Source of the DNA: a virus
Lineage: Duplodnaviria; Caudoviricetes
IMG/VR virus record: IMGVR_UViG_3300025426_000021
Location: 20,229-84,228 of that record
Reading direction: 5' to 3' (one strand)
DNA length: 64,000 nucleotides
Shown: positions 1-19,176 of the stretch, piece by piece
Position numbering within the stretch: the first letter of the stretch is position 1
Layout: every line of letters starts with the position of its first letter
Notes under the pieces: model-generated
The model's database searches: none
What the model was told of the DNA's origin: nothing
What the model saw: only the letters and a program-made list of their open reading frames with translations
Position numbers and translations under genes: made by a program

Positions 1-2
1 TT

Positions 3-1835
3 GGTGGGGGTTCATGCCCAACAATACATCAGTTCTCAGATTTAAACAGCAACGGTGTAGGTATGATTGTGCTTAACGAAGCTCAAACAACCATTAATGA
101 AAAGTTTGAAGGTTTATACGTTAACTTAGCAGATAACACAGGTTTAAATCCTACATCTAATTTTAACGAAATCAACAACATCTATACTATTGTAAGCGAT
201 ACAACATACTTTGACCCAACAGTAGGTACTGGTACCCATCAGTATCAAGTTATACCAAGTAGCCGTTTAGACTTCCAGTTATCTGCTACAAATACAGACC
301 CTAATGTAAGTCTTTCTCATATTGTTGAAAATATTCCTTCATACGATATTGCTAACATTAACGGTACAAGCAACGAGTTTAACGATTTAGGTATCTTATC
401 ACTATTTAAGATCAAGACTTCACCTTTTGCTGCTAACCCATTACAGTTAACTTATAACTTAGTAGAAGGTTACGCAACATCGTTCTATTCTAACCGTACT
501 GTACAAGATGTTAACGGTGGTGCTCCTAAGAACGACTTTATACAGACAGTTGTTAACAACGCTTCAAAGAACTTAACAGTTTACGTTAACCCAAATATTT
601 CAAACCAACTTACTTGGTTAGACAATAACGGTAATGCACAAAAATCAGTAAGAGTTATTAATACAGATCTTTACTCAACTGAAGCTTCACTAGCTACAAA
701 AGGGTGGCAGGTAGCTGATAAGTTATTCCCATTAGGTGTTTATGCTCCTACATTAGATACAACTAATAACAAAGTTATCGGTGATATTGGTGCAAAGTTA
801 GACAATGCTTTAGAGCTAGCTGCAAATGCTGATACAGTAAACATTGACGTTGTAGTTGATGCAGGTCTTTCAACTATTGCAGGCGGTACTTGCCAACTTT
901 CCGGCACATTTGACGATACATTATTTGATACAACTGTACAAGCTGCTTTAACTAACTTATCAAAGTCAGATGGTACTTATAATGCTTCAGCAAATCCTTA
1001 TACAATAGCTTGGAGCAACATTACAAGCAAGTTCGTTAACTTCACAACAAATACTCGTAAAGATTGTATCTTTATTTCTGACCCATTACGTCAAGTATTT
1101 GTACAAGGTATTAACTATAAAATATTAAGCGACAAGTCTAAGAACTTCTCACAAAACGTTTACTGGCCTTTACGTAATCTTTATTCTGGTACAAACTCAA
1201 GTTATGCTGCAACTTATGGTAACTGGGTCTTAATACAAGATTCATTTACTAACAAGCCAACATGGTTACCATTCTCTGGTTTTGCTTCTGCGTTATACAC
1301 AACTAACGATTCAGTTGCTTATCCATGGGCTGCACCAGCTGGTTTAAGTCGTGGTGTTATTAACGGTATTGTTGACATTGCTGTTAACCCAAATCAAAAA
1401 CAACGCGATTTACTTTATAAGATCTCGGTTAACCCAGTAGTAAACTTCCCTGGTTCTGGCTTCTCAATACAAGGTCAAAAGACATTATTAGCTACACCAA
1501 GTGCATTTGATCGTATTAATGTTCGTCGTTTATTCCTCTTCTTAGAGAAATCAGTTCTTAATACAAGCAGAAGCTTTGTATTTGAACCAAACACAACATT
1601 TACACAGAATCGCTTAGTAAACACAATCGACCCCGTATTTAAGTTAGCTAAGAATACTCAAGGCATTTACGACTACTTAATCGTATGTAACTCTACTAAC
1701 AACACACCTAGTGTTGTTGATGACAACTCACTTGTAGTAGATATCTACATTAAACCAGTTCGTACTGCAGAGTTTATCTTAGTAAACTTCTATGCTACTA
1801 AGACATCTCAGAACTTCCAAGAGTTATTACAATAA
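3..1835 (+). CDS. Contractile tail sheath protein (T4 gp18-like), 5'-truncated by window edge
   Basis: C-terminal sheath motifs WAAPAGLSRG, VNPVVNFPG, GQKTL, FDRINVRRLFL, FVFEPN, IYIKPVRTAEFI. The frame is open from position 3, so the true start is upstream of the window. Confidence 0.95.
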   Translation, partial: GGGSCPTIHQFSDLNSNGVGMIVLNEAQTTINEKFEGLYVNLADNTGLNPTSNFNEINNIYTIVSDTTYFDPTVGTGTHQYQVIPSSRLDFQLSATNTDPNVSLSHIVENIPSYDIANINGTSNEFNDLGILSLFKIKTSPFAANPLQLTYNLVEGYATSFYSNRTVQDVNGGAPKNDFIQTVVNNASKNLTVYVNPNISNQLTWLDNNGNAQKSVRVINTDLYSTEASLATKGWQVADKLFPLGVYAPTLDTTNNKVIGDIGAKLDNALELAANADTVNIDVVVDAGLSTIAGGTCQLSGTFDDTLFDTTVQAALTNLSKSDGTYNASANPYTIAWSNITSKFVNFTTNTRKDCIFISDPLRQVFVQGINYKILSDKSKNFSQNVYWPLRNLYSGTNSSYAATYGNWVLIQDSFTNKPTWLPFSGFASALYTTNDSVAYPWAAPAGLSRGVINGIVDIAVNPNQKQRDLLYKISVNPVVNFPGSGFSIQGQKTLLATPSAFDRINVRRLFLFLEKSVLNTSRSFVFEPNTTFTQNRLVNTIDPVFKLAKNTQGIYDYLIVCNSTNNTPSVVDDNSLVVDIYIKPVRTAEFILVNFYATKTSQNFQELLQ

Positions 1836-1843
1836 CCTTAACA

Positions 1844-1849
1844 TAAATA
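1844..1849 (+). promoter_or_regulatory. Late promoter core TAAATA, 6 nt before tail tube ATG
   Basis: Resembles the T4 gp55 late promoter TATAAATA; the TAA(A/G)TA-N5-7-ATG pattern recurs across the window. Confidence 0.7.
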
Positions 1850-1855
1850 TTTAAT

Positions 1856-2377
1856 ATGTCACAAACAATACAAGACTTCTATAGAGTAGCACAGCAAAGA
1901 GACTTTGCACGTGACTACATGTTACGGGTAGTTTCTATCGGTAATAACACGTTCAACGAAGACGATTTCGTTTACATTACTACTGCTACACTACCTTCTA
2001 GAGACATTCAAAACCAAACAGCTACTTATATGGGTCTAGATTTTAACTTCCCAGGCACTGTAAAGTACCCAGGAAGCAATGGATGGAATATTGAGTTCCG
2101 TGCTGATAAAGCTAACGTTCTTCGTAACAAACTTGAAGATTGGCAAAGAGGTCAAGTATTCAATGATGCTACAAGCACAGGTGACTTATCAGTAAGAGGT
2201 CCTGAATCTCTTATCCAACTACATCAAGTAGACGATAAACTCAATGTTCTTAACATTTTTAACCTATACGGAGCATATGTACAAAAGCTCGGTGAACTAA
2301 AGTATGATACTGCTGGTACTGGTAAACCTTTAACGTTTACTGCTACATTAGCATATCACTACTGGACAAGAGGTTAA
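1856..2377 (+). CDS. Major tail tube protein (gp19-like)
   Basis: Directly follows the sheath gene; 173 aa; tube-like pattern (ATLPSR, FPGTVKY, W-x-I-x-F, YGAY, F-x-A-T-L-A-Y); followed by a terminator. Confidence 0.85.
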   Translation: MSQTIQDFYRVAQQRDFARDYMLRVVSIGNNTFNEDDFVYITTATLPSRDIQNQTATYMGLDFNFPGTVKYPGSNGWNIEFRADKANVLRNKLEDWQRGQVFNDATSTGDLSVRGPESLIQLHQVDDKLNVLNIFNLYGAYVQKLGELKYDTAGTGKPLTFTATLAYHYWTRG

Positions 2378-2396
2378 TCAGTAGTTATTTGTTATT

Positions 2397-2422
2397 AACC
2401 CGACTGCAAAGTCGGGTTTTTT
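2397..2422 (+). terminator. Rho-independent terminator after tail tube
   Basis: AACCCGACT-GCAA-AGTCGGGTT hairpin followed by a T-run. Confidence 0.85.
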
Positions 2423-2446
2423 ATTGTTCTAAGCTTAAGTATTAGT

Positions 2447-2977
2447 ATGGCATTACAGGATTTTAATACTGCAGTTCAAGATTTTGGATTCGGCAAAAAA
2501 TATAGCTTCCAAGTGACTGATCTTCAAGGTCCGCCAAGCTTGGTAAGTTTTAATGCTAAACAATGGCTGTATGTAGAATCTCTTACTATACCCTCAAGAA
2601 AGACAAATACAACAAAAGTACCGTACAAAGCTTTTGATTTTGTGGTTCCAACCAATACTTCTTTTCCGGAGAATGAAAGCTGGAAAGTAAACTTTTTTTC
2701 AGATGAAAAATTAAAAATTAGAAGGCTCTTTGACACTTGGAGTGAAGCAACATACAAGTTTACAAATAATTATGGTGGTGGTAACTTAGGTTTTGGTAAC
2801 TGTAACCTAGAAATAACAATAAACGATGATAAAGGTTCTACAAAAAAAGCTTTTACTCTGTACGGAGTGTATCCAGTTTTAATAGGTAGTATGGAATATA
2901 ATGTATCTGATGCAGGTACAACTGTAGCTAAGGTTCCGGTTACTTTAGCATTCCAATATTTTGATAGTAAGTATTAA
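2447..2977 (+). CDS. Tail tube-fold paralog 2 (gp19-like)
   Basis: Same pattern as 1856..2377 (TIPSRK, W-x-V-x-F, LYGVYP, VTLAFQYF); TAAGTA 5 nt upstream. Confidence 0.75.
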   Translation: MALQDFNTAVQDFGFGKKYSFQVTDLQGPPSLVSFNAKQWLYVESLTIPSRKTNTTKVPYKAFDFVVPTNTSFPENESWKVNFFSDEKLKIRRLFDTWSEATYKFTNNYGGGNLGFGNCNLEITINDDKGSTKKAFTLYGVYPVLIGSMEYNVSDAGTTVAKVPVTLAFQYFDSKY

Positions 2978-2978
2978 T

Positions 2979-3605
2979 ATGTCGGATTACACTTCCCAAG
3001 ATTTAAATGCTTTTTACCGCGCAATACAACTGTACGGGTTCTCACGCGATTTTCAAGCTAGGGTAGATAGTATTTCGATTAACAATAAATTTTTTGTAGT
3101 TCCAGGTGTTGGTACAGACACACAAGCACCTCTTTTGTATATAAAAGATTTTACTATACCGGGCGTTAAAAAAGCAGTCGCTTCTGTAAAATATCAAGGG
3201 GTAGACTTTCATGCCCCTGGTACAAGAGATTTCGGTGATAGTAAGAACTGGGCAGTTACTTTCTATACAGATCAAAACTTAATATTTAAAACTTGGCTAC
3301 AAAACAGACTTATTGAATCAGCTTCTAATACTTCTAATTCATCAAATCATATACCTAACGATAATGATTACGCACAAATTTCAGTTTATAATGATAGTCT
3401 TCAAAAAGTAGCTAGTTATAAAATAAACGGTTTATTTGTTATAGATGTACCTAGTCAAACATATGATGTGTCTGGTGGTGGTAAGATACAAGAACTAAAA
3501 GTGGTGTTCGGCTATCAAAACTGGACTACATTACCAGTACAAGCAAACTTGGTGAAAACATCTGCTGATCAAGCTATAACAGCTAATTCATTATTAGGTA
3601 TTTAA
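2979..3605 (+). CDS. Tail tube-fold paralog 3
   Basis: GFSRDFQARV, TIPG, FHAPGT, WAVTFY, VFGYQNW resemble the tube gene. Start moved to ATG 2979, which lies 5 nt after TAAGTA. Confidence 0.7.
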   Translation: MSDYTSQDLNAFYRAIQLYGFSRDFQARVDSISINNKFFVVPGVGTDTQAPLLYIKDFTIPGVKKAVASVKYQGVDFHAPGTRDFGDSKNWAVTFYTDQNLIFKTWLQNRLIESASNTSNSSNHIPNDNDYAQISVYNDSLQKVASYKINGLFVIDVPSQTYDVSGGGKIQELKVVFGYQNWTTLPVQANLVKTSADQAITANSLLGI

Positions 3606-3606
3606 A

Positions 3607-4263
3607 ATGAATCGTATAACAGATATAAATACGTTTCTGACACAAGTACTGTCAAACCCTAACTTTCATATACCTGTTGAAGCGAATTTTATTGTAGGGT
3701 TTAGTGACTTACAAGAAAGAATAATTCCGAACTTATCAACTGCAAAAGTACCAGATCAAACCAGCGGGGTGGCTAATTTGTGGTCTAAGATACCAGATAA
3801 TGATATCTTTTTTGCAAACGGAGTATCTTTACCAGGAGAAACAATAAAAGCTGGTAGAGCAGGATTCTCGGCTAGCGGTGAAACCCTGTATGGTGGTCTT
3901 TTATCAAGCCCTGTACTGAACGGTCGTACTGATTTAGTACCTTTAGAAATAGACTTTCTAGAAACGAACCAATCTTTTGTTGATAACGTTATAAGACCAT
4001 GGATTATTAATGCATCTCATTTTGGTTTGTTTGCAAGGGATAGCAGTCAGTCTGCACAAAATCAAAATTTTAAAACAAATATTACTATTAATTTTTTAGA
4101 TAAACAAGGTAGTGATTCTGACTTTGTAAGTCGTAAAAGAATTTATTACGAAAACGCCGTACCGATAAGTGTTGCAGCTGCAAACTTTAACTACGGTGGT
4201 TCTAAAGCAGGTGTTCGTAGTATAAAAACCACGTGGTTATATTCTACATACTCGATAAGTTAA
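3607..4263 (+). CDS. Tube-fold baseplate/tube junction protein (gp54-like)
   Basis: VSLPGE, IDFLET, RPW, YENAVPISV, WLYS motifs; position within the tail module. Confidence 0.55.
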   Translation: MNRITDINTFLTQVLSNPNFHIPVEANFIVGFSDLQERIIPNLSTAKVPDQTSGVANLWSKIPDNDIFFANGVSLPGETIKAGRAGFSASGETLYGGLLSSPVLNGRTDLVPLEIDFLETNQSFVDNVIRPWIINASHFGLFARDSSQSAQNQNFKTNITINFLDKQGSDSDFVSRKRIYYENAVPISVAAANFNYGGSKAGVRSIKTTWLYSTYSIS

Positions 4264-4269
4264 TAGGCA

Positions 4270-5190
4270 ATGCCTTTTAAGTTAAATGCTTATCTCCCTA
4301 GTAAACAACTAGAAGTACAGATAAAAGAGCTCTGTTATAAACAATATAGAGAGCTTGTTAAAAGCTTATACAACACTGATAAGAAAGAAACCTTACAACA
4401 ATACAACTCTATACTAGAGGATCTTTGTCCGGATATAGTTGGTAAAGATATAACGTTTGAAGATAAGCTTTATTTGCTGTTGACTGTACGCAACTACTGT
4501 GTTAGTCCGGATTTAAAGTTAAAATGTACATTACCGGATAAAACTACCTTTAACTATACAATACCAGTTGATACTATCATTACCAAGGTTAAAAATATTA
4601 ATAAATCCGGTAAGGTAACTGTAGATGACATTGCTGTAGAGTATTCTAGTTATAAAGTGAGAGATGAACATGTTTTTCTTAGTAATAACAAAGATATACT
4701 TGTAGTATTAGCGTCTTATATAGATAACATAAAGACAGATACCCTAAATGTAGATTTTAAGGATTTTCCGTTAAACGAAAGAACAATGATTATAAACTCA
4801 TTACCTCAATCCGTTGTAAACGAGCTTATAAAAAGTATAGTTGCTAAAGAAGAAGAACTTAACTTAATAGACCTAATATTAGTAAAGGATCCTACAAATG
4901 ATAAAACGTTGTTGAGACTTTCATGTAGTGTTACTTTTGAAGTATTACAAAAGATGATCGAGTTCTTGTTTACAGAGAACTTAAACAACATTTATAGAAC
5001 TTTATACAATGCTGTTAAACATTTAGATTTTACCCCAGAATACGTAGATAGTATTACTCCTGTTGAAATACAGGTTTATTGGATGTACTTTATGCAGGAT
5101 AAAGCTGAAGCTGCTAAAAATAATACTCAAAACCCTTCACCTGGATTTAATCCACCGACTAGCACACCTAACTCAGAGCTAGGATTCTAA
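4270..5190 (+). CDS. Baseplate hub assembly protein (gp26/gp51-like)
   Basis: N-terminal YLPSK...IKEL...YRELVK and D-x-x-Y-L-L-L-x-V-R pattern; tail-module context. Confidence 0.5.
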   Translation: MPFKLNAYLPSKQLEVQIKELCYKQYRELVKSLYNTDKKETLQQYNSILEDLCPDIVGKDITFEDKLYLLLTVRNYCVSPDLKLKCTLPDKTTFNYTIPVDTIITKVKNINKSGKVTVDDIAVEYSSYKVRDEHVFLSNNKDILVVLASYIDNIKTDTLNVDFKDFPLNERTMIINSLPQSVVNELIKSIVAKEEELNLIDLILVKDPTNDKTLLRLSCSVTFEVLQKMIEFLFTENLNNIYRTLYNAVKHLDFTPEYVDSITPVEIQVYWMYFMQDKAEAAKNNTQNPSPGFNPPTSTPNSELGF

Positions 5191-5211
5191 GAATACCGGG
5201 TAAGTATTTTT

Positions 5212-5970
5212 ATGCCTAATGTAAATGATTTCCTAGCAAGTCTTAATACCCTTGCTGAAAAAAACTCTATCGATGTTTATTTGCCTACACTACAAAGAAG
5301 TGTAAAGTTTAAACCTGTTACAGCTAAACAACATAAAAGCCTGTACACCTGTGTTAGAGATAATGTAATATATAATACAAAGTTTTTTATATTAACACAT
5401 GATATTATTAAAGATAACTGTCTAGAACCAGATGTTATAAAGCAGCTTACCATTATTGACAGAGTTTTTGTATTGCTTGCACTAAGAAAAGATATTCTAG
5501 GTACAACTATAAAACAGAAAAATGCTGACTTTAGTAACTGTATACAAGCAGCTACTAGTGTAACATTACCGGTTAATGAAACATTTGTTAATAGTGGAGT
5601 AAAAATAGAAGTACAAGTACCTACCCTTGAAGATGCTTATAACATGGAAAAAGAGTTAAGAGGTAATTTAGAGCCTAAAACTCTAACTGTTGATATGCTC
5701 ACTCAAGAAGTTATTTTAAACAGTCTATGCAAATATATTAAAAACATCTGGATAGTAGGAGAAAGCGAGGACACAGATTTAAACTTTAGCTCTTTTTCGT
5801 ATAAAGATCGTATAACTTTAATAGAGCAGTTACCAGCTACTGTTCTTACTTCTATGCAAAGTTTTGCAGGTAAAGTAACAAGCATACAAGATAATGCTAC
5901 TAAAGCACTAGCTAACGACAATACAGAGGTACAGTTCTTTATTAACGCGGATTTCTTTTTATCCGAGTGA
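5212..5970 (+). CDS. Baseplate hub assembly protein (gp26-like) paralog
   Basis: VYLPTLQRSVKFKPVTAKQHKSL and IDRVFVLLALR resemble the gp26 N-terminus. Confidence 0.55.
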   Translation: MPNVNDFLASLNTLAEKNSIDVYLPTLQRSVKFKPVTAKQHKSLYTCVRDNVIYNTKFFILTHDIIKDNCLEPDVIKQLTIIDRVFVLLALRKDILGTTIKQKNADFSNCIQAATSVTLPVNETFVNSGVKIEVQVPTLEDAYNMEKELRGNLEPKTLTVDMLTQEVILNSLCKYIKNIWIVGESEDTDLNFSSFSYKDRITLIEQLPATVLTSMQSFAGKVTSIQDNATKALANDNTEVQFFINADFFLSE

Positions 5971-6001
5971 CATAAGGACAGTTTAATACCTAAGTATTTT
6001 T

Positions 6002-7834
6002 ATGTCCGAAGAGACTGATCAACAGGTATTAGAGTCTAATGCTTCTTTAACTGAAGCAATAGGTAAGCTTGCGGATGCTTTAACTAAAAGTAGCAAGTTA
6101 GGTGCACAAAGTAAATCCCTGGTTGATTTAATAGGAGAGTTAAACGAAAAAGTAGATAAGATCGGTAAGCAGGTTGCTACTGGTGTTAAGGAAGGTATAT
6201 CTGGTGTTTCTGGTGCATCTTCTTTTGTTACTACAGATAAAGAAGGTAGATTAGAAGAAATATACGAAAAGGATCAAGTCATAAGAGAGGCTTTAAGAAT
6301 ATTATCGGAAAAGGAAAGAAACTTTGAAAAAAGCGGAGAAAAAGAAAAACTCCAAGATGTAGAAACTGCAACTAAATCTAGGTTAAGTCAAGTAGAGGGG
6401 TTTTTTAGTAGATATATACCAAGCTCTATACAAGGTATATTAAGCTTTTTAGGCGGTAAAGAAATATTAGAATCTGTAAACAAATCTGTAATAAACAGTA
6501 TAACAGGCATGTTTGCAGGGAAAGAAAAAGAGAAAGCTGATGACCTGAAAAGAGCAAGAGAGCAAATTTATAAAGATAGAGATGAACAAGAGAATAAGAG
6601 ACGGGAAAGCGACGAGACTAATGAAAACAGAAAAAAAGCTTACGAAACTTATTGGTCAGGAGATATAATACCGGAAAGCAATTTAAATAATACAGGAGAA
6701 TCGGTTAAGACTGATATGTCTATAGTACCAGTTAATAGGGAAGATAGTCTAGGAGGTAAAAACAAAAAATCAGTAAACAATGTTGAAAACGAAGGCTCGT
6801 CTGAAGCAGTAACAAAAGATAACGCTATTCTTAGCGAAGAAGCATCAGAGATAAAAGTTTCAATAGTAGATATTAAGCCAGAAGTATTAAACAGCTTGGC
6901 AGCGGCAATAAAAGATGCATTAACAGAAAAGCGTTCATTAACAAGTGAAAATGATACTTCTACAGCAGGTAAGGTACCCTCATCCTCAGTTGAGACGGTA
7001 AGCACATCTGTACCTGAAGCACCAAGGCCAGGAGAACTTGAAGTATTACCTGAAGAGGAACCGGCAACTCCAGTCTCTTTTATAAACACTTTAAGAAATG
7101 TTACTTCATCAGGTAAAGACTCAGGTAAAGAACAACAAGAAGGAAATCAATCGCCAAACTCTAGTTTAAATACTAACATTTTAACTGGGATTGAGCAAGG
7201 AGCAGGTAAAGCTGCTACGCAAATGTTATTACCTTTGCTTGTTTCAGCAGCTACAAATCTTTTATTGGGCGGACCTGAAAACCCAGTTGCAGATGTTGCT
7301 AGTGCTTGGACATACGAAGAAATGTCAACGCTGGGAGGTGCTGCAAAAGGTGGGGATATAAAAAAAGACGTACCTATTGTGGTAGGAGAAGAAGGACCGG
7401 AAGTATTTGTTCCAAGTAATAATGGTACTGTAATACCTAATGATAAAATAAAAGATACTGATAGTGTTGCAGCCACCCCTGCAATAGAAAAACTTACTTC
7501 TCTGTTTTCTTCTACTAGTACTGATAAGCAAACCACAGTAACAGCTTTACCTTCAGAAGAGCTTAAAACTATTTCAAACGTAACTAATATAAATAATGAT
7601 TCTAATATGTTATTAAGTGAAGTTAATAAAACTTTGCTTGATATAAGCAGTAAGTTAGAAAATAACTTAAAAAACCCTGTTAATCAACCTGCTACAGCAA
7701 ATACAGCTGGTGTTATGAGTAGTAGCAGTACTAATAATAATAGTAGTATTAATATAACAACAAATAGTAGCCCTATAACCAATTCGCGTATAATAACGGA
7801 TACTATGTTATATAGAAGGAGAGCTCTAGCTTAA
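6002..7834 (+). CDS. Probable tape-measure/baseplate hub-associated protein
   Basis: Coiled-coil and low-complexity sequence with an AKGG...IVVGEEGPEVFVP motif common in tape-measure-type proteins. Confidence 0.5.
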   Translation: MSEETDQQVLESNASLTEAIGKLADALTKSSKLGAQSKSLVDLIGELNEKVDKIGKQVATGVKEGISGVSGASSFVTTDKEGRLEEIYEKDQVIREALRILSEKERNFEKSGEKEKLQDVETATKSRLSQVEGFFSRYIPSSIQGILSFLGGKEILESVNKSVINSITGMFAGKEKEKADDLKRAREQIYKDRDEQENKRRESDETNENRKKAYETYWSGDIIPESNLNNTGESVKTDMSIVPVNREDSLGGKNKKSVNNVENEGSSEAVTKDNAILSEEASEIKVSIVDIKPEVLNSLAAAIKDALTEKRSLTSENDTSTAGKVPSSSVETVSTSVPEAPRPGELEVLPEEEPATPVSFINTLRNVTSSGKDSGKEQQEGNQSPNSSLNTNILTGIEQGAGKAATQMLLPLLVSAATNLLLGGPENPVADVASAWTYEEMSTLGGAAKGGDIKKDVPIVVGEEGPEVFVPSNNGTVIPNDKIKDTDSVAATPAIEKLTSLFSSTSTDKQTTVTALPSEELKTISNVTNINNDSNMLLSEVNKTLLDISSKLENNLKNPVNQPATANTAGVMSSSSTNNNSSINITTNSSPITNSRIITDTMLYRRRALA

Positions 7835-7842
7835 GTAATATT

Positions 7843-9279
7843 ATGGCCGACTTATTTCCTCAAGATTCAGTTGCTGGGTATAGTCCAGATGTTGATACAA
7901 AAACTCAACAACTTGATGCGGCTAATAGCATAACTGCAGATATGCAAAGCACCGGGGGAGTATCTGTAGCGGGGACAGGAGCAAAATCTTTGTTAAATGT
8001 TGGTAAGTGGGATGTACATGGTTCTTGGAACTGGGCATTAAATTTAGGTTCCACTACTGATGATGTAAGGCAGTATGTACCGAGAATAAAAATGATAGAA
8101 TATAATCTAACATCTAGTTCTCAATTAAATGCTTTTAAACTATTTTTATCCCAAACCCAATCTCAATTAGATCTCGCAGGTGTTGATCAAAACATTGAAA
8201 GTAATATAGCTACGCTATTTGCTAACAGCGCAATAAACAACCTAAATCAATATGTAGGAGAAAATAATGGAACCGCGCAACCAGGCGGCTTTAGTGAAAC
8301 CGACCCTTATTATGGTTTATATCAAGGTAAAGTTACAGGCAATGAGTACGTTTTACCTTATTTGAGTTCACAAAATATGACTTCAGTCTTAGGATCCTGG
8401 GCTAAAGTTGACGATAAAAATCTTGTGACTGCTTTAGCTAAAGCGGCTATATTTAAGAGTGGTGGATTTACAGGTAAAATCGCAACTGATATACTTGGTC
8501 AAATACAAAGTGCAGGATTAACTTATGAACAGTTTGCTGCCCCAGCCGAGACGTTAGCTAGTTTAAATGCACCGGGCATTTCAAAAGAAACTATAAAAAT
8601 GTTTACACCAAACGAAAACGGAGACACAATAACTACTACGTTTTATTTGTTTAACACTGAAAAAGTTTCTGATATATTAGATAACTGGAACTTTTTATTT
8701 GCATTGACTTATCAAAACTTGCCTAATAGAAAATCTTTAAGCAGGATGGATCCACCTTGTATTTATGATGTAACAGTACCAGGGTTTAAAAGATTCCCAG
8801 TAGCAGTTGTTTCTGGATTAAAAGTAGACAATCTAGGTACTACAAGACTAGTAGATATAACTACCGGTGAAATGATGTCGGTAAATAAAGCGGAATCTAG
8901 TAAAAATGTAAAAATAATACCGGAAGCTTACAAGGTTACTATAACCATACAAAGTTTATTAATAAATTCTCGTAATTTATTTTATTATAACTATGATCAG
9001 ACTGATTCAGGAGCAAAAATAAATGTAATAACTTCTCCTGATCAAAACAATCAATCAAAACAAGCATTAACAAAAAATCTAGAAGATGCAACTAATGCTG
9101 CTGCAGCTGCTGCAAAAGCTGCGGAAGAAACTCAAAGTAATTACAATAATACAGTAATAAACGGTACTGCAGGAGAAGCTACTGCAGCTAACAATGCTAA
9201 TGTAGCGGCACAAAATGCAGCAGCTGCAGCGGTAGCAAATTTACGATCAGCTCTCAAATCCTCAGGACTAGGACCATAA
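7843..9279 (+). CDS. Baseplate tube cap-like protein (gp48-like) with Ala/Asn-rich tail
   Basis: F-x-L-F-N-T, YQNLPNR, PPCIYDVTVPG, IPEAYKVTITIQ pattern; lies upstream of the gp53-like gene. Confidence 0.5.
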   Translation: MADLFPQDSVAGYSPDVDTKTQQLDAANSITADMQSTGGVSVAGTGAKSLLNVGKWDVHGSWNWALNLGSTTDDVRQYVPRIKMIEYNLTSSSQLNAFKLFLSQTQSQLDLAGVDQNIESNIATLFANSAINNLNQYVGENNGTAQPGGFSETDPYYGLYQGKVTGNEYVLPYLSSQNMTSVLGSWAKVDDKNLVTALAKAAIFKSGGFTGKIATDILGQIQSAGLTYEQFAAPAETLASLNAPGISKETIKMFTPNENGDTITTTFYLFNTEKVSDILDNWNFLFALTYQNLPNRKSLSRMDPPCIYDVTVPGFKRFPVAVVSGLKVDNLGTTRLVDITTGEMMSVNKAESSKNVKIIPEAYKVTITIQSLLINSRNLFYYNYDQTDSGAKINVITSPDQNNQSKQALTKNLEDATNAAAAAAKAAEETQSNYNNTVINGTAGEATAANNANVAAQNAAAAAVANLRSALKSSGLGP

Positions 9280-9280
9280 T

Positions 9281-9658
9281 ATGGACGGACAAAAACAAAA
9301 TAATGTATCTACATTACCTACATTAAGTTTAATAAACTTAGAAAACTTATTTAATGTGTATAGTGAAACTGTTTATGATCCTAACATACAGAACTACTTT
9401 TATAACTTAATAGGTACTGTTAATATACCAGAAAACTTAAACGCTGCTACTTACACGGTATATACAGTAACAACAGATAATATGCCCTGGACGTTAATAG
9501 CTCAAAAAGTTTACAATGCACCTGGTTTATGGTGGTTAATATGTTGTATTAATAATATACAAAACCCTATACAGTTTCCTAAAGCTGGCACCAAGCTGAA
9601 AATTTTAACTCCAGATTACGTGTCTAGTGTGCTACAAAAAATAAATCAACCTAGCTAA
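9281..9658 (+). CDS. Baseplate wedge protein gp53-like (LysM-like)
   Basis: WTLIAQKVYNAPGLWWLICCINNIQNP...GTKLKIL is a typical gp53/LysM signature. Confidence 0.8.
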   Translation: MDGQKQNNVSTLPTLSLINLENLFNVYSETVYDPNIQNYFYNLIGTVNIPENLNAATYTVYTVTTDNMPWTLIAQKVYNAPGLWWLICCINNIQNPIQFPKAGTKLKILTPDYVSSVLQKINQPS

Positions 9659-11214
9659 TGGCAAACTTTGATTCCATATTTAATGGTCGACCACCTGCTG
9701 AATCTAATACCAAGCTTTATAATAATCAAAAATATCAGTTAGATATTATTTTTGATAACTCGCAAGGTAATCAGTTTCAACTGGACTTAGCTAGTATGGT
9801 TACTTTGGATATAGAAGAAGATACTCGTTGTTGGTACAAGAAAGCAAGTCTAGTTATACGTAACCCGCAAAATATATTTGAACAGAAGGTATTTTCGAAT
9901 GCTAACCTTAATCAATATTATAAGTTTAGAAACGATGGTAGAGACATAGTATATATAAGGTTCCGTATAATAGAAGACAGTGCAATACTATCTACTAATG
10001 CAAAAATAGATTATAATACTTGGGGCATGCAGTATAAGTTTGTAGTATATGATAGAGAAGATATACCAGGAGAAACACCTTTAACTAAACAACTTAAACT
10101 ATATTTGTGGGAGTTTGATTATCAAATACTACAAGAAACAAACTTGCTTTGGTCAACTAACGAGTTGTTACCTTCAGATATTAACCCGGCTTATGCTACC
10201 GACGATCAAAAGAAAGTACCTGCTGGTAATGCTATTAAAAGCGCTATTACAAAAGGACTACAAAAATACGGTGTACAAACATTTACAAGTGAATGGGATG
10301 TAGGTTCTAGTAAAATATTTTATACCGCTCCTGCTAACTATACCGGGGCTGATACGATTGAGTATTTGTTAAAAAAGCATGTAAGCTCTCAAGTAGGTAC
10401 TGATGGTGGAGCTGATCCATGTATATTGTCTCGTACCCGTTACGACAATGATTGGAAACTGATATCATATACTAACTTTTTTTCTAAAGCAATCGAGATG
10501 AAAGGGCCTATAGCTACAGCAGGTCCATTACAAAGAGAAATAATAACTTTATCACTGCCTGGTGGAGACGATAGTGCAACATACTTGTACAACTTACAAA
10601 TATCTCCTTCCAACTCAAAAAGTTATTTTGCTAACTTTAAAGATCCTATTACTAGCAACATACGTAACATACACTTTACAGATATGTCTCCTTTAGATAG
10701 CGCTAGAGACATGATTCACACTCCTTGCTATAGTAATGATTTAAAAAATAAAATATTTGAACTAGATTTTAGCAATAATGATATACAAAATGTAAAAAAG
10801 TTTGTCAATACTAACTACGCTAATAAGCTTAAGATAAACTCTAACCCTGATACATTAATAACTTTAAACAAAACTAAAACAGATGCTTTAGCATTAAGAA
10901 ACATCTATTCTTACAGTACAGATAAGCTTAGTAGGTTTGCAGAAGGTAGAAACTTTTTATTAACTTCTGCATTATATTATAATACTTCATTGAGCTTTAC
11001 AGCATTTGGTTCTCCAATACGAGAAGCGGGTACGTTTATAAGTATTGAAACAGATGTAGGTAGTGTAAGAGATGAGTTCTTTAACAAGCTGTTTGGACAA
11101 TGGATGGTATACAATGTAGTACATAGTTTCTCTGAAGGAGATTACACAAACAACGTTACTGCATTAAGAGTACATGCAAATGATAACATTGATATAAAGA
11201 GTAATATAACTTAA
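9658..11214 (+). CDS. Baseplate hub protein (gp27-like)
   Basis: C-terminal G..REAGTFI...GQWMVYNVVHSF..Y pattern; located between gp53-like and gp5-like genes. Confidence 0.55.
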   Translation: MANFDSIFNGRPPAESNTKLYNNQKYQLDIIFDNSQGNQFQLDLASMVTLDIEEDTRCWYKKASLVIRNPQNIFEQKVFSNANLNQYYKFRNDGRDIVYIRFRIIEDSAILSTNAKIDYNTWGMQYKFVVYDREDIPGETPLTKQLKLYLWEFDYQILQETNLLWSTNELLPSDINPAYATDDQKKVPAGNAIKSAITKGLQKYGVQTFTSEWDVGSSKIFYTAPANYTGADTIEYLLKKHVSSQVGTDGGADPCILSRTRYDNDWKLISYTNFFSKAIEMKGPIATAGPLQREIITLSLPGGDDSATYLYNLQISPSNSKSYFANFKDPITSNIRNIHFTDMSPLDSARDMIHTPCYSNDLKNKIFELDFSNNDIQNVKKFVNTNYANKLKINSNPDTLITLNKTKTDALALRNIYSYSTDKLSRFAEGRNFLLTSALYYNTSLSFTAFGSPIREAGTFISIETDVGSVRDEFFNKLFGQWMVYNVVHSFSEGDYTNNVTALRVHANDNIDIKSNIT

Positions 11215-11222
11215 GTAATAAT

Positions 11223-12479
11223 ATGGCTCTAAGTGCACAACAAGTAATAAAAACGTATGACTATTATAATACGCTTACTGTTGTGCCTGGATATTCTGCA
11301 GTAGGGTATCCAAATGAGAACAATATAGCTAAAGCTTATTATAGTACCAAGTTTTCTTCTAATCCGATTGGTTCTCAAATAGACTTTTTTACACACTTAA
11401 ATGATCCGTGTATTGATATAGTAGCACCACAACCAGTGTTCACTATAACTAAACCTTTATCTGCTTTGAACCCTCAATGGATAGATGGTTGGTGGGATCA
11501 GGCAATGTTTTATTCCCACCCAGAAGTGGTAGCACAGTTAAGTGCTAACTATCCTGACATATATCAAAACTTTTCAGACTCGGTAGGTACTTTAGCGTAT
11601 GGTACGAACAATACAGACTATACTAATCCTAACTTTGGTAGAGATCCTATTGCATTACCTATACAGAACAAGGTTATATCAAATGTGTTTAAAGAGTTAG
11701 ACTCTCTTAATAACGATTTGTTAAAACTGTATCAAAACGTTACACCTAAAGGCTTTGGTTTAGGTTCAAATAACTTTTTACGTCAAGCTTTAGCTTATCA
11801 AGGTGCTTCATTTAGTTTACAAGCTGGTATTAAGACAAAGTACGGAGTACTAAAAGTAAAGATACCTTTTGCTACTAACCTTACCGGTAACTTAGAAAAC
11901 AACTCGAACTGGAATGTTGATCAGATTACTGAAAACATTAATCATACAGTTGATAAGATTAACAACGCTATTAAAACACCAGGTAGAATGTTATCTGAAG
12001 CTATCTTTAATGTAAAGCAATATATTAAAGATAAGATTAAACAGTTACCTTCAATAGGTAAGTTGCTTGGCTTAAATGTAGGTAACCCAACTGCAGTAAC
12101 TAAGGTGTTACAACAGTTACAGAGCTATGCAAGTGCAGCAAAGAGTGTACTGAATACTGCTGAAGGAGTGCTAGCAGCTACTAAGACAGTTGTAGCTACT
12201 GTACAACAGGGTATAGGTAGTATTGCTGGTACTTTAAATACGGAAACCAATCTTCTTAAAAATACTGTTAACACTGTACAACGTTTACCAGCTACCGTGC
12301 AAGGCTTTAACAGTGTAGTAAGTGTTGGTGGTACAACAGTAGGATTAAACTATCAAACTAATAATGCCGTAACGAACTTAAATAGTAATAAAGTTACTAT
12401 TATACCAGGTACTGTTAAGAGTGATGGTAATCCTTCAGTGATAAGTATTAATACAGTGCAAAACCCTCCTAACACATGA
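11223..12479 (+). CDS. Hypothetical virion/baseplate protein
   Basis: Late promoter TAAGTA 5 nt upstream; ATGA overlap with the gp5-like gene. Confidence 0.55.
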   Translation: MALSAQQVIKTYDYYNTLTVVPGYSAVGYPNENNIAKAYYSTKFSSNPIGSQIDFFTHLNDPCIDIVAPQPVFTITKPLSALNPQWIDGWWDQAMFYSHPEVVAQLSANYPDIYQNFSDSVGTLAYGTNNTDYTNPNFGRDPIALPIQNKVISNVFKELDSLNNDLLKLYQNVTPKGFGLGSNNFLRQALAYQGASFSLQAGIKTKYGVLKVKIPFATNLTGNLENNSNWNVDQITENINHTVDKINNAIKTPGRMLSEAIFNVKQYIKDKIKQLPSIGKLLGLNVGNPTAVTKVLQQLQSYASAAKSVLNTAEGVLAATKTVVATVQQGIGSIAGTLNTETNLLKNTVNTVQRLPATVQGFNSVVSVGGTTVGLNYQTNNAVTNLNSNKVTIIPGTVKSDGNPSVISINTVQNPPNT

Positions 12480-14659
12480 CAGAACAATTTAATAGCATAT
12501 ACGTAGGCATAGTTGTACAGAACGATGACCCTGATTACCGTGGTAGAGTGAAAGTATGGGTACCTCACATATCTACTATTGTTTATAACAAGTGGAATCA
12601 GTTAAAACAAGATCAAACGTTTTCTTTTCCAGGTACACCTAATGGAGAAAACTTAAGTCAAATATTACCAGATTTAAAAGCTCAGTTACCATGGGCAGAA
12701 CAGTGTAGCCCGATAATGGGTGCTTCTACCCCTGGTTATTATAATGCTTATGCAGATGTTAACTCTGTATCAGATGCTCCTTTAGTATATGGGTTACCTA
12801 ATAGTAACTATGCTAACTCTTCTTCAGCAACTAGCATTGACCCAGAGAACAAAGGTGGTAAACCTGGTTCGTATTTTGAATCTCATCCGGTGAGTGATGC
12901 ATTTGGTAATACAGCTAAGATAAACAGTCAAAACTTTAATCAGTATTCAGATCTCTATAAACCCTCTACATACTCTAATGCTGCTAAGGGTATATTTTCT
13001 GTTCCTAATGTAGGTGCACATGTGTGGGTGTTTTTTAGAGATGGTAGTCCATTAGTACCTGTTTACTTTGCTGCTGCTTTTGGACAAAACGATTTTAGCA
13101 GTATCTATCAAGCAGGTAGTGCTTATCCTGATTACCCAGATTCATTTGAAAATAAGGATAAAAACGCTTCTCAAGGTGCTACAAACGATCATTTAACTTA
13201 TCGTAATAAGATGGTTATTAACCAGCGTGCAGCTGCTATTGAGTTTATTAATACTACTGATAGAGAAGCATATAAGGTGACCCATTTCGGTGGTGGTTAT
13301 CATGAAATGAATAACTACTTTACTGCTCTGTTTAATCCTAAGAACTTTCAGTTACTAACCCTAGCTGATAAGTTTGAGACTGTAAAAGGTCATAATAACT
13401 TATATGTAGGACGTACTAGTGATAATATCATTAACGGAGATCACTTCTTAAAGGTTGGTAACTTCAGTACAAAAGCAACATCAATATGGAGTGACATATA
13501 TAGTACTTTAACAGGTATAACCGATCCAGCAAAGTTAGCTGCGCAGTTAGCTAGTGTGGTGAATCCTTTATCTGAACAAGAAAAAGAAATGGGGTTTGGT
13601 GGTAATAGCTTTGAGTTTATCACAAAACATAAAGTAGTAACAGTGGGTATAAAGCGTAACACTGCTAAAGCTTATGTATCAGATATAGCTGGTATATTGA
13701 CTGATGGTTTAAACGGAATACAAAGCATATCCCCAGATTTGCCTACAGGTACGTTTAAAACTAGACCTTATAACTTTCCAGCGTTTGCAGAACTATATGT
13801 ACCGGATATGCCTGGTGGTAACTATACCATACATGCAATGAACAAGTTTAGTGTTGATGCTGGTTCTGGTGGTATGCAGTTACGTACATTAGGTAACTTG
13901 AAGATAGCTAGCGGCACCACTGAAGTAAGAGGCGATCTTATTACGCTAGGCTCTCAAGATGGTCAAATCGCTATTAATGGTAGTCTTGTTACCATTGATG
14001 CAGATACTTTAAACTTAAGAAATAAAATCGGTGGACAGGTGGTAGTAGATAGCACTTTAGGTGTATCAAAGAACGTTATTATCGGGGGTGGTGCTTACGT
14101 AGAAGGTGAAATGTTTGTAAATCACGTAACCGCTCCTATAGAATACCAAGTAACAGAAAGTACTCAAATAGTCGCCAAAGGACCAGCTGCCCCGGGCGGT
14201 GTAAGTCCTGCTGGTGCACCAGGTAGTGGTTGGTCTATTTCTAGATCTAATATGCAAGGTAGTATAACTGTTATCATACCACCTCTAACAGTAAGCGGTA
14301 GTCTTACTAAAGAAACAGCAGTAACATTGCAGATTAATGCAGGTACGGTAGATTTAAATACAGCTGGTGCAGGTGTATTAACTATTGCACAACCACACAC
14401 TCACGTATTCAAGAACTTACCACTCACTTTACTTGCACAACCACCAGTTGGACCAAGTCCATTTAACGCTTATGCTGCTTCTAAGATTGGTGTTAGCGAT
14501 AATAAAGCTATCGGTCATGAAGGCCGTAGCGACGGTAGAAGCTCTACTGTTGGTATACCACCACCAACAAAGTTCTTACTTAAAGATGCACCTACAATAG
14601 CTGGCCCTAATGGTCCTGGTTCAACTCTAGTAGGACCAGCTATAGTGCCTACTCCTTAA
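12476..14659 (+). CDS. Baseplate central spike (gp5/VgrG-like)
   Basis: N-terminal YVGIVVQNDDPDYRGRVKVWVP and VPNVGAHVWVFFRDG (gp5 OB-fold); beta-helix-like repeats; C-terminal PHTH motif. Confidence 0.85.
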   Translation: MTEQFNSIYVGIVVQNDDPDYRGRVKVWVPHISTIVYNKWNQLKQDQTFSFPGTPNGENLSQILPDLKAQLPWAEQCSPIMGASTPGYYNAYADVNSVSDAPLVYGLPNSNYANSSSATSIDPENKGGKPGSYFESHPVSDAFGNTAKINSQNFNQYSDLYKPSTYSNAAKGIFSVPNVGAHVWVFFRDGSPLVPVYFAAAFGQNDFSSIYQAGSAYPDYPDSFENKDKNASQGATNDHLTYRNKMVINQRAAAIEFINTTDREAYKVTHFGGGYHEMNNYFTALFNPKNFQLLTLADKFETVKGHNNLYVGRTSDNIINGDHFLKVGNFSTKATSIWSDIYSTLTGITDPAKLAAQLASVVNPLSEQEKEMGFGGNSFEFITKHKVVTVGIKRNTAKAYVSDIAGILTDGLNGIQSISPDLPTGTFKTRPYNFPAFAELYVPDMPGGNYTIHAMNKFSVDAGSGGMQLRTLGNLKIASGTTEVRGDLITLGSQDGQIAINGSLVTIDADTLNLRNKIGGQVVVDSTLGVSKNVIIGGGAYVEGEMFVNHVTAPIEYQVTESTQIVAKGPAAPGGVSPAGAPGSGWSISRSNMQGSITVIIPPLTVSGSLTKETAVTLQINAGTVDLNTAGAGVLTIAQPHTHVFKNLPLTLLAQPPVGPSPFNAYAASKIGVSDNKAIGHEGRSDGRSSTVGIPPPTKFLLKDAPTIAGPNGPGSTLVGPAIVPTP

Positions 14660-15150
14660 GATCTTGGTAACACATTATTAGTTGTAATAATCTGTACAGG
14701 TTCTTTAGTCTTAATCTTTAGATTGTTTGTCTTAAAGAACTTGTTTGGTACATTAGCAATAGCTTGACCAATAGATGATACTGGATACTTTTGGCCTTTC
14801 TTAGAGGCATTAAAGTTATAAGCACCATTCTTAATAGAATCTATAACAGTAGCTACATCATCATCTTCTGGAATCTGTAATACCCAACCTACTAGATCCT
14901 TTGTAATAATCTTATTAGTGTCGGATACAAGCATAACGTATTGTTGCTTTGGTTTTGGTTCGCTTTCCTCATCATTACCGGTTTCTTCAGAAGCATCAAC
15001 CGCTTCTTCTTCCGTTTTAGCAGCTTCATCAACAGCTACTGTAGCATTGCTTAAGAGATCAAGGATTTCATCAATCTTTTCTTGATCTTCAACAGTCTTT
15101 TGCAATGCAGCGATAACAGCTTGTAGTTTAACGTATTCTTCTTTTGACAT
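14656..15150 (-). CDS. Hypothetical protein
   Basis: 164 aa ORF with an upstream TTGATT-N16-TACTAT promoter. Confidence 0.65.
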   Translation of the reverse strand: MSKEEYVKLQAVIAALQKTVEDQEKIDEILDLLSNATVAVDEAAKTEEEAVDASEETGNDEESEPKPKQQYVMLVSDTNKIITKDLVGWVLQIPEDDDVATVIDSIKNGAYNFNASKKGQKYPVSSIGQAIANVPNKFFKTNNLKIKTKEPVQIITTNNVLPRS

Positions 15151-15172
15151 AGTATGTATTAGTTATGTTACT

Positions 15173-15200
15173 ATAGTATAGTTTATTCTTAGGAAATCAA
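15173..15200 (-). promoter_or_regulatory. Sigma70-type early promoter TTGATT-N16-TACTAT
   Basis: Matches the recurring TTGAWW-N16-TAnnAT consensus. Confidence 0.55.
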
Positions 15201-15246
15201 GCTAATGGTATAGATATTTTTAAACATTTTATAATTAAAATAATAT

Positions 15247-16506
15247 ATGGAAGCTGATAAAGTATTAAAGGATAACAACTCATTTTGTCTTGTTCCTTGG
15301 ATACATTCCTACATTTCTCCACAAGGTAAGAGATGCTTATGTGCTGTTTCAAATGATAACTTTGGAAAAAACTTGTCATTAGAAGAGTTTTGGAATAGCG
15401 AGCAAATGAAAGAAATAAGACGTAAAATGATGCGAGGAGAGTCGTTATCAGAATGTGAGCGTTGCCACGGAAAGACTGTTAACGTTTATACATATAAAAC
15501 ATACTTCAATACAGAGTTTGCTCATAGAACAGAAGATATTTTAAAGAACACATCAGAAGATGGCACATACAATCAGTTACCTCAAACATTAGATTATAGA
15601 ACTAATGTTTGTAACTTTAAATGTAAAATGTGTACAGAAGAGTATTCTACACAAATACAAAATGAAAAGACTCGTAACAATATACCACTACAGTATGGTA
15701 TGTTAAACAAAGAAGAAAGAGAAAGAAGTGTAGAGATAATAGATAGCGAGTTTAATAATGAAGATATACTCAAGAACTTATTAGAGTTGTATTGGGCTGG
15801 TGGGGAGCCAATGTTTTGGAAAACTCATTGGGACGTATTAAAGAACTTAATAGATAAAAATTACGCAAAAAACGTAATATTAAGATATCATAGCAACTTA
15901 TCTACAATAAAGTATAAAGACTTAGAACTAACTGAATGTTTTAAGCATTTTAAAAAAATTAAGTTTTTCTGTAGTTTAGATGGTACCGGAGAAATAGGGG
16001 AATGGATAAGATCGAATCTTGATTACTTTAAATGGAGGTTAAACTTTGCTAAGTTAGTAGAATACAGAAACAGTAATGATAACTTAGAGCTAATACTTTC
16101 TATTACAGTTAATACACCTACCTTATTTGATTTCGATAATCTGTACAGCTTATGTAAAGAGTTTGCTGTTATACCAGATTTTCAAACATGCCATGCAGAC
16201 AATGCTACTAACTTGTTATGCCCAAGAACTATACCCAAGAAAATAGTACAAGATATATGTGATGCATTTCTACAAAAATATGCTAATGAAAACAACCTTG
16301 TAATGGATAAGTTTAAAAGCTACATTAACTTTCTATACAGTCAAGAGTTTTTTGAAGTAGATGCAGATGGAGAATATAGAAAACAATTAAAAAGAGCCAC
16401 TGATGAAATAGTTTATTTAGAAGAGAATAGGTCTCATGAAACTATTACTTTTAAAAAAATAATATCTCAAAATAAAGACTTAGAAGATTTTTATAACAAT
16501 ATATGA
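15247..16506 (+). CDS. Radical SAM protein with N-terminal twitch/SPASM-like Cys cluster
   Basis: CNFKCKMC (CxxxCxxC), AGGEP, SLDG; N-terminal FCLVPW...CLC...CERC. Confidence 0.85.
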   Translation: MEADKVLKDNNSFCLVPWIHSYISPQGKRCLCAVSNDNFGKNLSLEEFWNSEQMKEIRRKMMRGESLSECERCHGKTVNVYTYKTYFNTEFAHRTEDILKNTSEDGTYNQLPQTLDYRTNVCNFKCKMCTEEYSTQIQNEKTRNNIPLQYGMLNKEERERSVEIIDSEFNNEDILKNLLELYWAGGEPMFWKTHWDVLKNLIDKNYAKNVILRYHSNLSTIKYKDLELTECFKHFKKIKFFCSLDGTGEIGEWIRSNLDYFKWRLNFAKLVEYRNSNDNLELILSITVNTPTLFDFDNLYSLCKEFAVIPDFQTCHADNATNLLCPRTIPKKIVQDICDAFLQKYANENNLVMDKFKSYINFLYSQEFFEVDADGEYRKQLKRATDEIVYLEENRSHETITFKKIISQNKDLEDFYNNI

Positions 16507-17156: not shown

Positions 17157-17157
17157 T

Positions 17158-18905: not shown

Positions 18906-18915
18906 ATATAGTTAA

Positions 18916-19140
18916 ATGAAATTTGAAGAACTAATGGAACAATACGGAATGCTAGAAAAAAAGCAGCGTATATTCTATCCTAAGACTCTTAAGTTATCCG
19001 AACCATTTTTAAAAGCTCTTAAAGAAGAGTTTGCTATACAGGAAAAAGCAGGTATGGATCTAAAAAAGTTTGCTTTGTTGTTAAATAGAGCACTTCAGTT
19101 CCATATTAATGAACATAAAAAAACCCCTGCACCGAAGTGA
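18916..19140 (+). CDS. Small late protein, candidate internal head protein
   Basis: TAAATA 7 nt upstream; N-terminus MKFEELMEQY. Confidence 0.55.
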   Translation: MKFEELMEQYGMLEKKQRIFYPKTLKLSEPFLKALKEEFAIQEKAGMDLKKFALLLNRALQFHINEHKKTPAPK

Positions 19141-19176
19141 GGGGTTAGTTGTTTGAGGGTGTGAAAAGTTCTAATA

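Follow-up and report, generated by a model that had tools for sequence, protein, structure and literature searches.

Why should a phage genome of 35% GC be stripped of about three quarters of one AT-only palindrome, AATT, and keep the others? The question is raised by an IMG/VR contig of 84,228 bp (record IMGVR_UViG_3300025426_000021, hereafter G000; completeness estimated at about 40%). The 64,000-nt stretch analysed here, contig bases 20229-84228, is called the window, and coordinates refer to it unless contig positions are named. An earlier note, made by eye from the letters of the window, claimed that AATT is strongly avoided, and that the phage protects guanine-containing sites by 7-deazaguanine modification and purges a guanine-free one, which predicted an AATT-specific host defence. 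We examined these claims with word statistics, related contigs and gene annotation.

Depletion of AATT in the contig

The shortage is a property of the window as a whole and of the region on which the note was based:

1-64000, no strand: AATT-depleted phage DNA, 140 AATT against 831 TTAA; Markov observed/expected ratio (O/E) 0.32
1-14659, plus strand: tail sheath, three tail-tube paralogues and baseplate genes (Pfam and PHROG), 27 AATT against 192 TTAA

Over the whole contig AATT was counted 175 times and TTAA 984 times, and AATT was low in each 3-kb bin, including the 20,228 bp upstream of the window. The second-order Markov model placed AATT (O/E 0.32, z -27.6) lowest among the 136 strand-symmetric 4-mers; the next-lowest palindrome was CATG, at 0.74 (z -5.9). 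A codon null was applied as well, in which synonymous codons were shuffled 300 times within each of 91 open reading frames (ORFs; a crude set covering 96% of the contig), with the protein and the per-gene codon usage preserved. AATT was observed 167 times against 683 ± 18.6 expected (O/E 0.24, z -27.7), the lowest count among the shuffles was 624, and none of the 300 was as low as the observed one. This ratio is far from the value near 1 that the earlier note had named as speaking against avoidance. The reduction was about four-fold in all three codon phases and equal on both strands. For the region 1-14659 alone the codon-shuffle O/E was 0.21 (z -12.8; 13 genes), and the region holds 37 GATC, 23 CCGG, 105 AGCT and 85 GTAC. 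The hand count of one AATT and about 30 TTAA in positions 1-1860 was borne out (1 and 31), and so was the near absence of AATT from 9658-14659 (1, with 62 TTAA). The strong avoidance claimed for 1-14659 was thus borne out by the codon shuffle, and it extends over the entire contig.

The depletion is confined to a single word. CATG had a codon-shuffle O/E of 0.83 and the other 4-bp palindromes ranged from 0.85 to 1.31, so that none of them is strongly depleted in G000. The guanine-free TTAA, ATAT and TATA were not depleted in the window by the Markov model or by the codon shuffle. TTAA, GTAC, AGCT and CCGG were modestly over-represented in the window (codon-shuffle O/E 1.18-1.31, z 4.8-9.2). 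Under a third-order Markov model the 5- and 6-mers that contain AATT showed no extra depletion, and the avoided unit is therefore the 4-mer AATT itself. All ten NAATTN contexts stood at 0.04-0.35 of their density in unpurged relatives. No other 5- or 6-mer was convincingly depleted in G000; CCTAGG was absent against 9-13 expected under low-order models, but higher-order models expected only 1.9-3.6. As a background control, AATT was scored in 47 stretches of bacterial DNA that measure 8-21 kb and come from diverse phyla, and its Markov O/E there was 0.76-2.51. Tsp509I cuts AATT. The same 4-bp palindrome is an existing restriction specificity in the accounts of MluCI given in PMC5567051 and PMC8919816.

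The loss of AATT can be read from codon choice. Glu is encoded by GAA 13 times and by GAG 83 times before a TTN codon, and by GAA 1031 times and GAG 281 times elsewhere (p 1.5e-38). Before TTN, Lys is AAA 24 times and AAG 110 times, compared with 1241 and 560 elsewhere. Asn before TNN is AAT 57 times and AAC 294 times (elsewhere 887 and 562), and Ile after NNA is ATT 62 times and ATC or ATA 327 times (elsewhere 779 and 727). Switching of the kind seen for Glu was also found for Lys and Gln, for Asn when T follows and for Ile when A precedes, with p values from 1e-28 to 1e-55. The earlier note had read such a dodge from Glu-Phe written as GAG-TTY and Lys-Phe as AAG-TTY, and the context-dependent switching of both Glu and Lys agrees with it.

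Relatives and the history of loss

Pfam and PHROG searches assign G000, a phage known from metagenomic contigs only, to the T4-superfamily myoviruses. It encodes a T4-type large terminase, baseplate proteins, the tail sheath and three paralogues of the tail tube. A DNA polymerase of family B is present too, as are a primase, a DnaB-like helicase and gp32-, UvsX-, UvsY- and gp55-like proteins. A megablast search with 20 kb against 50,697 phage records gave no close cultured relative. By tblastn with the polymerase and the terminase, the best matches were only T4-like phages of Pseudomonas, Sinorhizobium and cyanobacteria, at about 30-36% identity. Relatives were therefore taken from IMG/VR in two scans, a polymerase-anchored one with 47 loci, 46 of them at 78-97% amino-acid identity, and a terminase-anchored one with 78 further loci. 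"Purged" was called by fixed criteria in both sets, and the tallies count contigs, several of them near-duplicates, rather than independent lineages; both sets may sample the same genomes. Five long relatives (G001-G005) were compared in full, among them G001 (120 kb, from a clade at about 80% identity), G003 (63,519 bp) and G004, which is locus L012. One of the AATT-purged contigs in the terminase set was recovered from another sample and matches G000 at 100% identity over 9,155 bp, so the genotype is real and circulating.

The direction of change was followed in blastn-aligned columns. AATT sites present only in the relative against those present only in G000 numbered 93 and 20 for G002, 197 and 38 for G003, 210 and 32 for G001, and 108 and 24 for G005, whereas eleven control palindromes (TTAA, ATAT, TATA and eight others) were symmetric in the same comparison. 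Against G004, which is also purged, the numbers were 18 and 28. Even L037, which differs from G000 by only 7%, showed 21 and 4. In the G003 and G002 comparisons, single-base differences made up 77-83% of the lost sites, and 63-70% of the lost AATT were synonymous versus 45-49% of the lost TTAA. The lost sites mostly read AGTT or AACT in G000, next GATT or AATC, and then TATT or AATA. Since the losses strike all four positions, occur by both transitions and transversions and are mostly silent, the pattern is that predicted by selection against the word and not by one mutational pathway.

How widely is the deficit shared? By base composition, the AATT O/E was 0.20 in G000, 0.15 in G004, 0.48-0.77 in G002, G003 and G005, and 0.96 in G001. 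It was 0.14-0.15 in L011, L012 and L013, 0.4-0.8 in most relatives at 90-95% polymerase identity and 0.9-1.0 in most of the 80% clade, the 120-kb G001 included. AATT was purged in 4 of the 47 polymerase-anchored loci and 11 of the 78 terminase-anchored loci. The deficit is lineage-specific and not a property of the clade.

Other relatives have purged other words. CATG is absent from all 63,519 bp of G003, whose polymerase is about 92% identical to that of G000; it is likewise absent from L010 (30 expected) and from 14 terminase-anchored loci. The CATG-free sister lineage takes in G003 (L061-L064) and also L009, L010, L135-L142, L178 and L180. TCGA was not found in L006, L017, L020, L021 and L042, against 21, 14, 11, 10 and 9 expected. 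CTAG was zero in L029, L031, L034 and L018 (34, 28, 15 and 13 expected) and in L168-L171, and only two copies were left in each of L017, L020 and L021 (35, 32 and 23 expected); its loss was found in two separate polymerase clades. CGCG occurred once in L149 and once in L150, against 16 and 15 expected. The palindromes erased across the clade are thus AATT, CATG, CTAG, TCGA and, only perhaps, CGCG.

The history of the AATT purge was examined with a nucleotide tree of the polymerase gene. In it the mildly depleted L003/L045 lineage is the sister group of G000, and the L011-L013 lineage groups with TCGA- and CTAG-free contigs. Approximately unbiased (AU) tests rejected the union of the AATT-purged rows in a single clade (p 1.7e-4), and likewise that of the CTAG-purged rows (p 1e-9), a result from one gene of mosaic genomes with groups named after inspection of the tree. 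Sites lost in both AATT-purged lineages carried the same replacement in 179 cases and different ones in 129, a share equal to that of control words. An older or recurrent purge with later regain fits as well as independent purges do.

The predicted deazaguanine cassette

The premise that G000 belongs to a deazaguanine-modifying phage was supported by gene content, as the genes of the pathway are present:

39536-40342, minus strand: DpdA, DNA guanine transglycosylase of the predicted DpdA3 type, 49% identical over its full length to immuto DpdA
38734-39312, minus strand: DpdN-like formyltransferase, predicted to formylate preQ1 or dPreQ1 (Pfam Formyl_trans_N, E 4e-7)
38155-38730, minus strand: AAA_28/thymidylate-kinase-like gene within the cassette (Pfam AAA_28; phrog_2107)
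37248-38165, minus strand: QueF-like nitrile reductase, preQ0 to preQ1 (Pfam QueF_N E 1e-28, QueF E 8e-18)
29233-29964, minus strand: FolE, GTP cyclohydrolase I (Pfam GTP_cyclohydroI, E 7e-48)
57478-57942, plus strand: QueD (Pfam PTPS, E 1e-16), conserved in G001-G005
57965-58771, plus strand: QueE-like radical SAM gene (weak Fer4_12 match), conserved in G001-G005
62933-63655, plus strand: QueC, 7-cyano-7-deazaguanine synthase (Pfam QueC, E 2e-62)

Pfam matches were thus obtained for FolE, QueD, QueE (weak), QueC and QueF, all five of which are kept in sister contigs. DpdA itself has only a weak Pfam TGT match (E 0.12), and it is 43% identical to its homologue in the Campylobacter CP220 group; the DpdA proteins of CP220 and of the Flavobacterium phage immuto are both assigned to the DpdA3 subfamily in PMC10516641. 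DpdN is the name proposed for the formyltransferase in the same source. In the phage collection searched by tblastn, only the four immuto records matched the G000 formyltransferase, at 43% identity. The order of DpdA, a small ORF, the formyltransferase, the kinase-like gene and QueF is identical in immuto. By this homology we predict that guanine in G000 is hypermodified to fdPreQ1 through the DpdA3/DpdN cassette. PMC10516641 reports that the dG peak of immuto DNA is replaced by fdPreQ1, at 345,000 per million nucleotides, that the DpdA3 subfamily fully modifies the genomes of CP220, phiST and immuto, and that these modifications occur post-replication.

Two genes near the pathway deserve mention. 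The kinase-like gene holds the same cassette position in immuto, a similar gene adjoins DpdA in CP220, and a second AAA_28/thymidylate-kinase-like gene lies at 59200-59919 of the window; the AAA_28 kinase-like gene may be an unrecognised part of the deazaguanine pathway. The other is the ORF at 63657-63998, which immediately follows QueC and runs off the end of the window. It matches a glutamine amidotransferase weakly (GATase_6, E 5e-4), and the archaeosine route of phage 9g, as outlined in PMC10516641, includes a Gat domain that is fused to QueC.

The cassette is common to the relatives whatever word they have lost. DpdA is encoded by all five long relatives, and CATG-free G003 has the whole pathway. 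DpdA, DpdN, QueF and the kinase-like gene are all intact in the TCGA- or CTAG-free contigs L006, L017, L020 and L031. No relative without dpd genes was found among those that could be checked, all of which carry the DpdA-DpdN-QueF cassette. Because sisters that share the cassette have purged different words and TTAA, ATAT and TATA are undepleted in G000, the purged word follows the lineage, presumably the enzyme set of its hosts, and not the guanine content.

Probable host restriction, rival explanations and known phages

Then, what selects against AATT? The probable answer, in our judgement, is avoidance of restriction sites, with a Type II enzyme of the host that targets AATT as the selective agent. 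The lineage would have repeatedly infected hosts with an orthodox Type II enzyme that cuts AATT (MluCI/Tsp509I-type specificity). Each AATT would raise the odds that incoming or replicating phage DNA is cleaved before it is protected, and mutations that destroy the site, mostly silent single-base changes, would be fixed genome-wide. The predicted fdPreQ1 modification would be of no help here; AATT contains no G, so guanine modification cannot protect it and avoidance is the route left. The AATT purge would then be one episode in a clade whose sub-lineages purge AATT, CATG, CTAG or TCGA, presumably tracking the enzymes of their host strains. Several reports are consistent with this account. Site avoidance is described in PMC6286503 as mostly a matter of orthodox Type II sites in non-temperate dsDNA phages, MluCI is reported to digest the deazaguanine-modified DNA of phage 9g to completion (PMC5567051), and AATT is listed as a modified motif in three metagenome-assembled genomes of uncultured marine Acidimicrobiia (PMC8919816). 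The Lake Biwa metaepigenome study (PMC6329791) names none of the motifs AATT, CATG, CTAG and TCGA in its main text. The depletion, the codon choices behind it, its restriction to certain lineages, the direction of loss and the dpd genes are observed; the host enzyme as the selective agent and the actual modification of the DNA are what we infer. The AATT-specific host defence predicted by the earlier note is the best explanation of the depletion.

The note's wider rule, that 7-deazaguanine shields all guanine-containing sites and leaves selection on guanine-free ones only, hence AATT, appears improbable to us, although several points favour it. The dpd cassette is present in G000, the only strongly depleted palindrome there is guanine-free, and the literature offers parallels: immuto DNA, fully fdPreQ1, is reported to have withstood many enzymes with G in their site (PMC10516641), AT-only cutters digest 9g DNA in the experiments of PMC5567051, and T-even phages with hydroxymethylcytosine (hmC) avoid few E. 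coli sites, 2.4% versus 55.8% in relatives without hmC, in the figures of PMC6286503. The cassette-bearing sisters, however, fully purge CATG, TCGA and CTAG, all of which contain G, and Campylobacter phage CP220, for which PMC10516641 reports 100% ADG, has 5 CATG against 92 expected in 50 kb. TTAA, ATAT and TATA are equally free of G yet undepleted, and G000 itself has the mild Markov deficit of CATG noted above. TaqI (TCGA) is also reported to have cut 9g DNA to completion, though only about 25% of the G in 9g is replaced. The part of the two-tier strategy that stands is that guanine modification cannot shield AATT; the part that guanine-containing sites need no purging is contradicted by the sisters and by CP220. 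Equal depletion of guanine-containing palindromes, which the note had held to count against its proposal, is not seen in G000 and is seen in the sisters.

A weapon of the phage's own is far less credible. The phage, or a rival phage, could use an AATT endonuclease against host or rival DNA, and the genome would dodge it. G000 does encode nuclease-like genes, a SegE-type GIY-YIG endonuclease and a TnsA-like endonuclease, and self-avoidance would be expected to cause complete loss of a word, as for CATG, TCGA and CTAG in the sisters. With 175 AATT remaining, however, such a nuclease would cut G000 itself; the SegE-like and TnsA-like genes also occur in relatives that are not AATT-purged, and no G000 gene was exclusive to AATT-purged lineages in the comparable regions, an incomplete check since the contigs are fragments. 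Hardly to be entertained at all is an origin without any defence, in a context-specific mutational bias, in a constraint of DNA structure (a narrow minor groove or bending in packaging) or in avoidance of a regulatory motif. AATT is indeed structurally distinct from TTAA, and the genome is AT-rich with a strong codon bias. Structural or regulatory constraints, though, would be common to all relatives, and the depletion is lineage-specific: AATT O/E ranges from 0.15 to 0.96 among relatives whose genes for packaging, replication and transcription are the same. The spread of the losses over four positions and both kinds of substitution does not fit one mutational path, and AATT contains no C that could undergo methyl-cytosine deamination. 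The equal depletion across codon phases and strands, and the absence of anything comparable in the 47 bacterial stretches, also argue against it.

Avoidance of a host AATT enzyme has to face several results that weigh against it. The searches for a host identified none, and with it no cognate AATT system. A scan with the phage epimerase was uninformative, with 55 genome-contig loci from many phyla at about 55-61% identity. A DNA search of window positions 1-20000 against 401 genomes of one flavobacterial family gave no spacer-like match; it returned the epimerase gene and short chance-level matches, the best of them with 23-24 identical bases and E values of 1e-3 to 1e-2 per genome. The purge is also incomplete, with 175 sites in 84 kb (about 2 per kb), which a potent enzyme specific for AATT would still be expected to cut. 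The remnant sites require selection that acts site by site and either is still running or is balanced by frequent re-creation of AATT, or else only intermittent exposure to the enzyme. AATT is often re-created by mutation in an AT-rich genome, and about 500 of some 680 expected ORF sites have been removed in G000, more than the entire CATG complement eliminated by G003. A further difficulty is the history of the sites. AATT sites of the outgroup G001 are retained at 8% in G000 and 6% in G004 and at only 13% in G002 and 17% in G003, and retention is higher for six AT-only control words, 20-47% overall and 28-47% where G002 and G003 are concerned. Turnover of AATT is raised across the entire clade above 90% identity, and since retention is low even in the mildly depleted G002 and G003, the history is more complex than one recent purge.

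The depletion also differs among the genes of G000 (chi-square p 7e-5); recombination with unpurged relatives is the cause we propose. The extremes, with expectations from the codon shuffle, are as follows:

9658-15150, no strand: block of four ORFs nearly free of AATT, 1 observed against about 52 expected
44088-47677, minus strand: AATT-free block of an SMC/AAA_23 ATPase, an ORF of unknown function and a glycosyltransferase, 0 against about 33 expected
16503-24702, no strand: flexible, less-purged island with three tRNA genes, 12 ORFs with 27 against about 62 expected (O/E about 0.44)

The first block sums the ORFs at 9658-11214, 11223-12479, 12476-14659 and 14656-15150. In the island, several ORFs are absent from G001 or G003 though their flanks are present. 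The ORF at 3607-4263 retains more AATT than the bulk of G000. Upstream of the window, at contig positions 508-12694 (L001), lie four consecutive large genes rich in collagen triple-helix repeats, two of which end in a Peptidase_S74 chaperone domain; they are probably tail-fibre genes. Two of them have AATT O/E values of 0.68 and 0.71, and the other two are near 0.2. The AATT-richer island, the ORF at 3607-4263 and the two less-purged fibre genes would fit a recent import of less-purged DNA.

Other features of these regions were noted in passing. A variable island at 15247-26020 carries genes for an NAD-dependent epimerase, a sulfotransferase, a SPASM/radical SAM protein, DUF6071 and Methyltransf_24, together with tRNA-Gln, tRNA-Glu and tRNA-Gly, and several of its ORFs are unmatched in the sister contigs. 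The three tail-tube paralogues (phrog_45) stand in tandem at 1856-3605, and after them, at 4270-5970, come two genes with a T4_baseplate domain. The stretch between the polymerase and the Mre11/Rad50-like genes (42932-50967) holds a run of four to five glycosyltransferase-like genes, two of which (46787-48418) occur in just a subset of the sister contigs.

Compared with what is known, the AATT purge is an unusually clean new instance of textbook restriction-site avoidance and not a new mechanism. The strong under-representation of a short palindrome in G000 is like the palindrome avoidance by virulent dsDNA phages treated by Rusinov et al. 2018 (PMC6286503). It resembles the classic cases in its bearer, a T4-like dsDNA phage of non-temperate type, in its silent losses and in its lineage-specific pattern. 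It differs from them in that AATT is far costlier to purge in a genome of 35% GC, that the cognate host system is deduced rather than identified, and that G000 also carries a predicted complete guanine hypermodification. In the T-even phages, by the account in PMC6286503, modification coincides with little avoidance, unlike in G000. What is added here is the mosaic of different, often complete palindrome purges among close relatives that share a complete-replacement deazaguanine cassette. It is conceivable, though we would put it at somewhat less than an even chance, that in this clade with a predicted DpdA3/DpdN system replacing all G, each sub-lineage erases a different palindrome, and that these signatures outpace core divergence and read out host specificity. 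If so, the purge signature of a phage contig would reveal, without any culture, which restriction specificity its host strain has. The differing purges of close relatives could serve, along with methylome or restriction-modification data, to connect phage contigs with their host strains. A testable prediction for G000 itself is that its uncultured host carries an AATT-specific restriction system.

The closest parallels for the cassette are immuto and CP220. The cassette of G000 has the same order as that of immuto (PMC10516641), with DpdA 49% and DpdN 43% identical, but the rest of the genome is unrelated, and the polymerase is of the T4-type family B in G000 and of family A in immuto. AATT is not depleted in the 40.8 kb of immuto examined (O/E 1.01), and the modification is reported for immuto and predicted from its genes for G000. 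CP220 (Firehammervirus) is a T4-like myovirus with a DpdA3 homologue at 43% identity. It combines the 100% dADG replacement reported in PMC10516641 with the near-elimination of a 4-bp palindrome. Its GATC and GTAC are also low, at 0.64 and 0.67 (L125, NC_027997 30001-80000).

Taken together, the sisters of G000 and CP220 suggest that phages combine full 7-deazaguanine replacement with site avoidance, even where the site contains guanine. It is commonly held that a hypermodified phage has no need to avoid sites, and this view is thereby qualified. Provided that the DNA is indeed modified, such sites remain under selection in spite of a complete substitution by 7-deazaguanine. The two may coexist because DpdA, acting post-replication, leaves new DNA exposed, or because some 4-cutters tolerate the modified base. 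CP220 would share this combination with the sisters of G000, and it differs from G000 itself in the word that it purges, CATG rather than AATT (which is near expectation, at 0.88), in its GC content of 27% and in having a known host.

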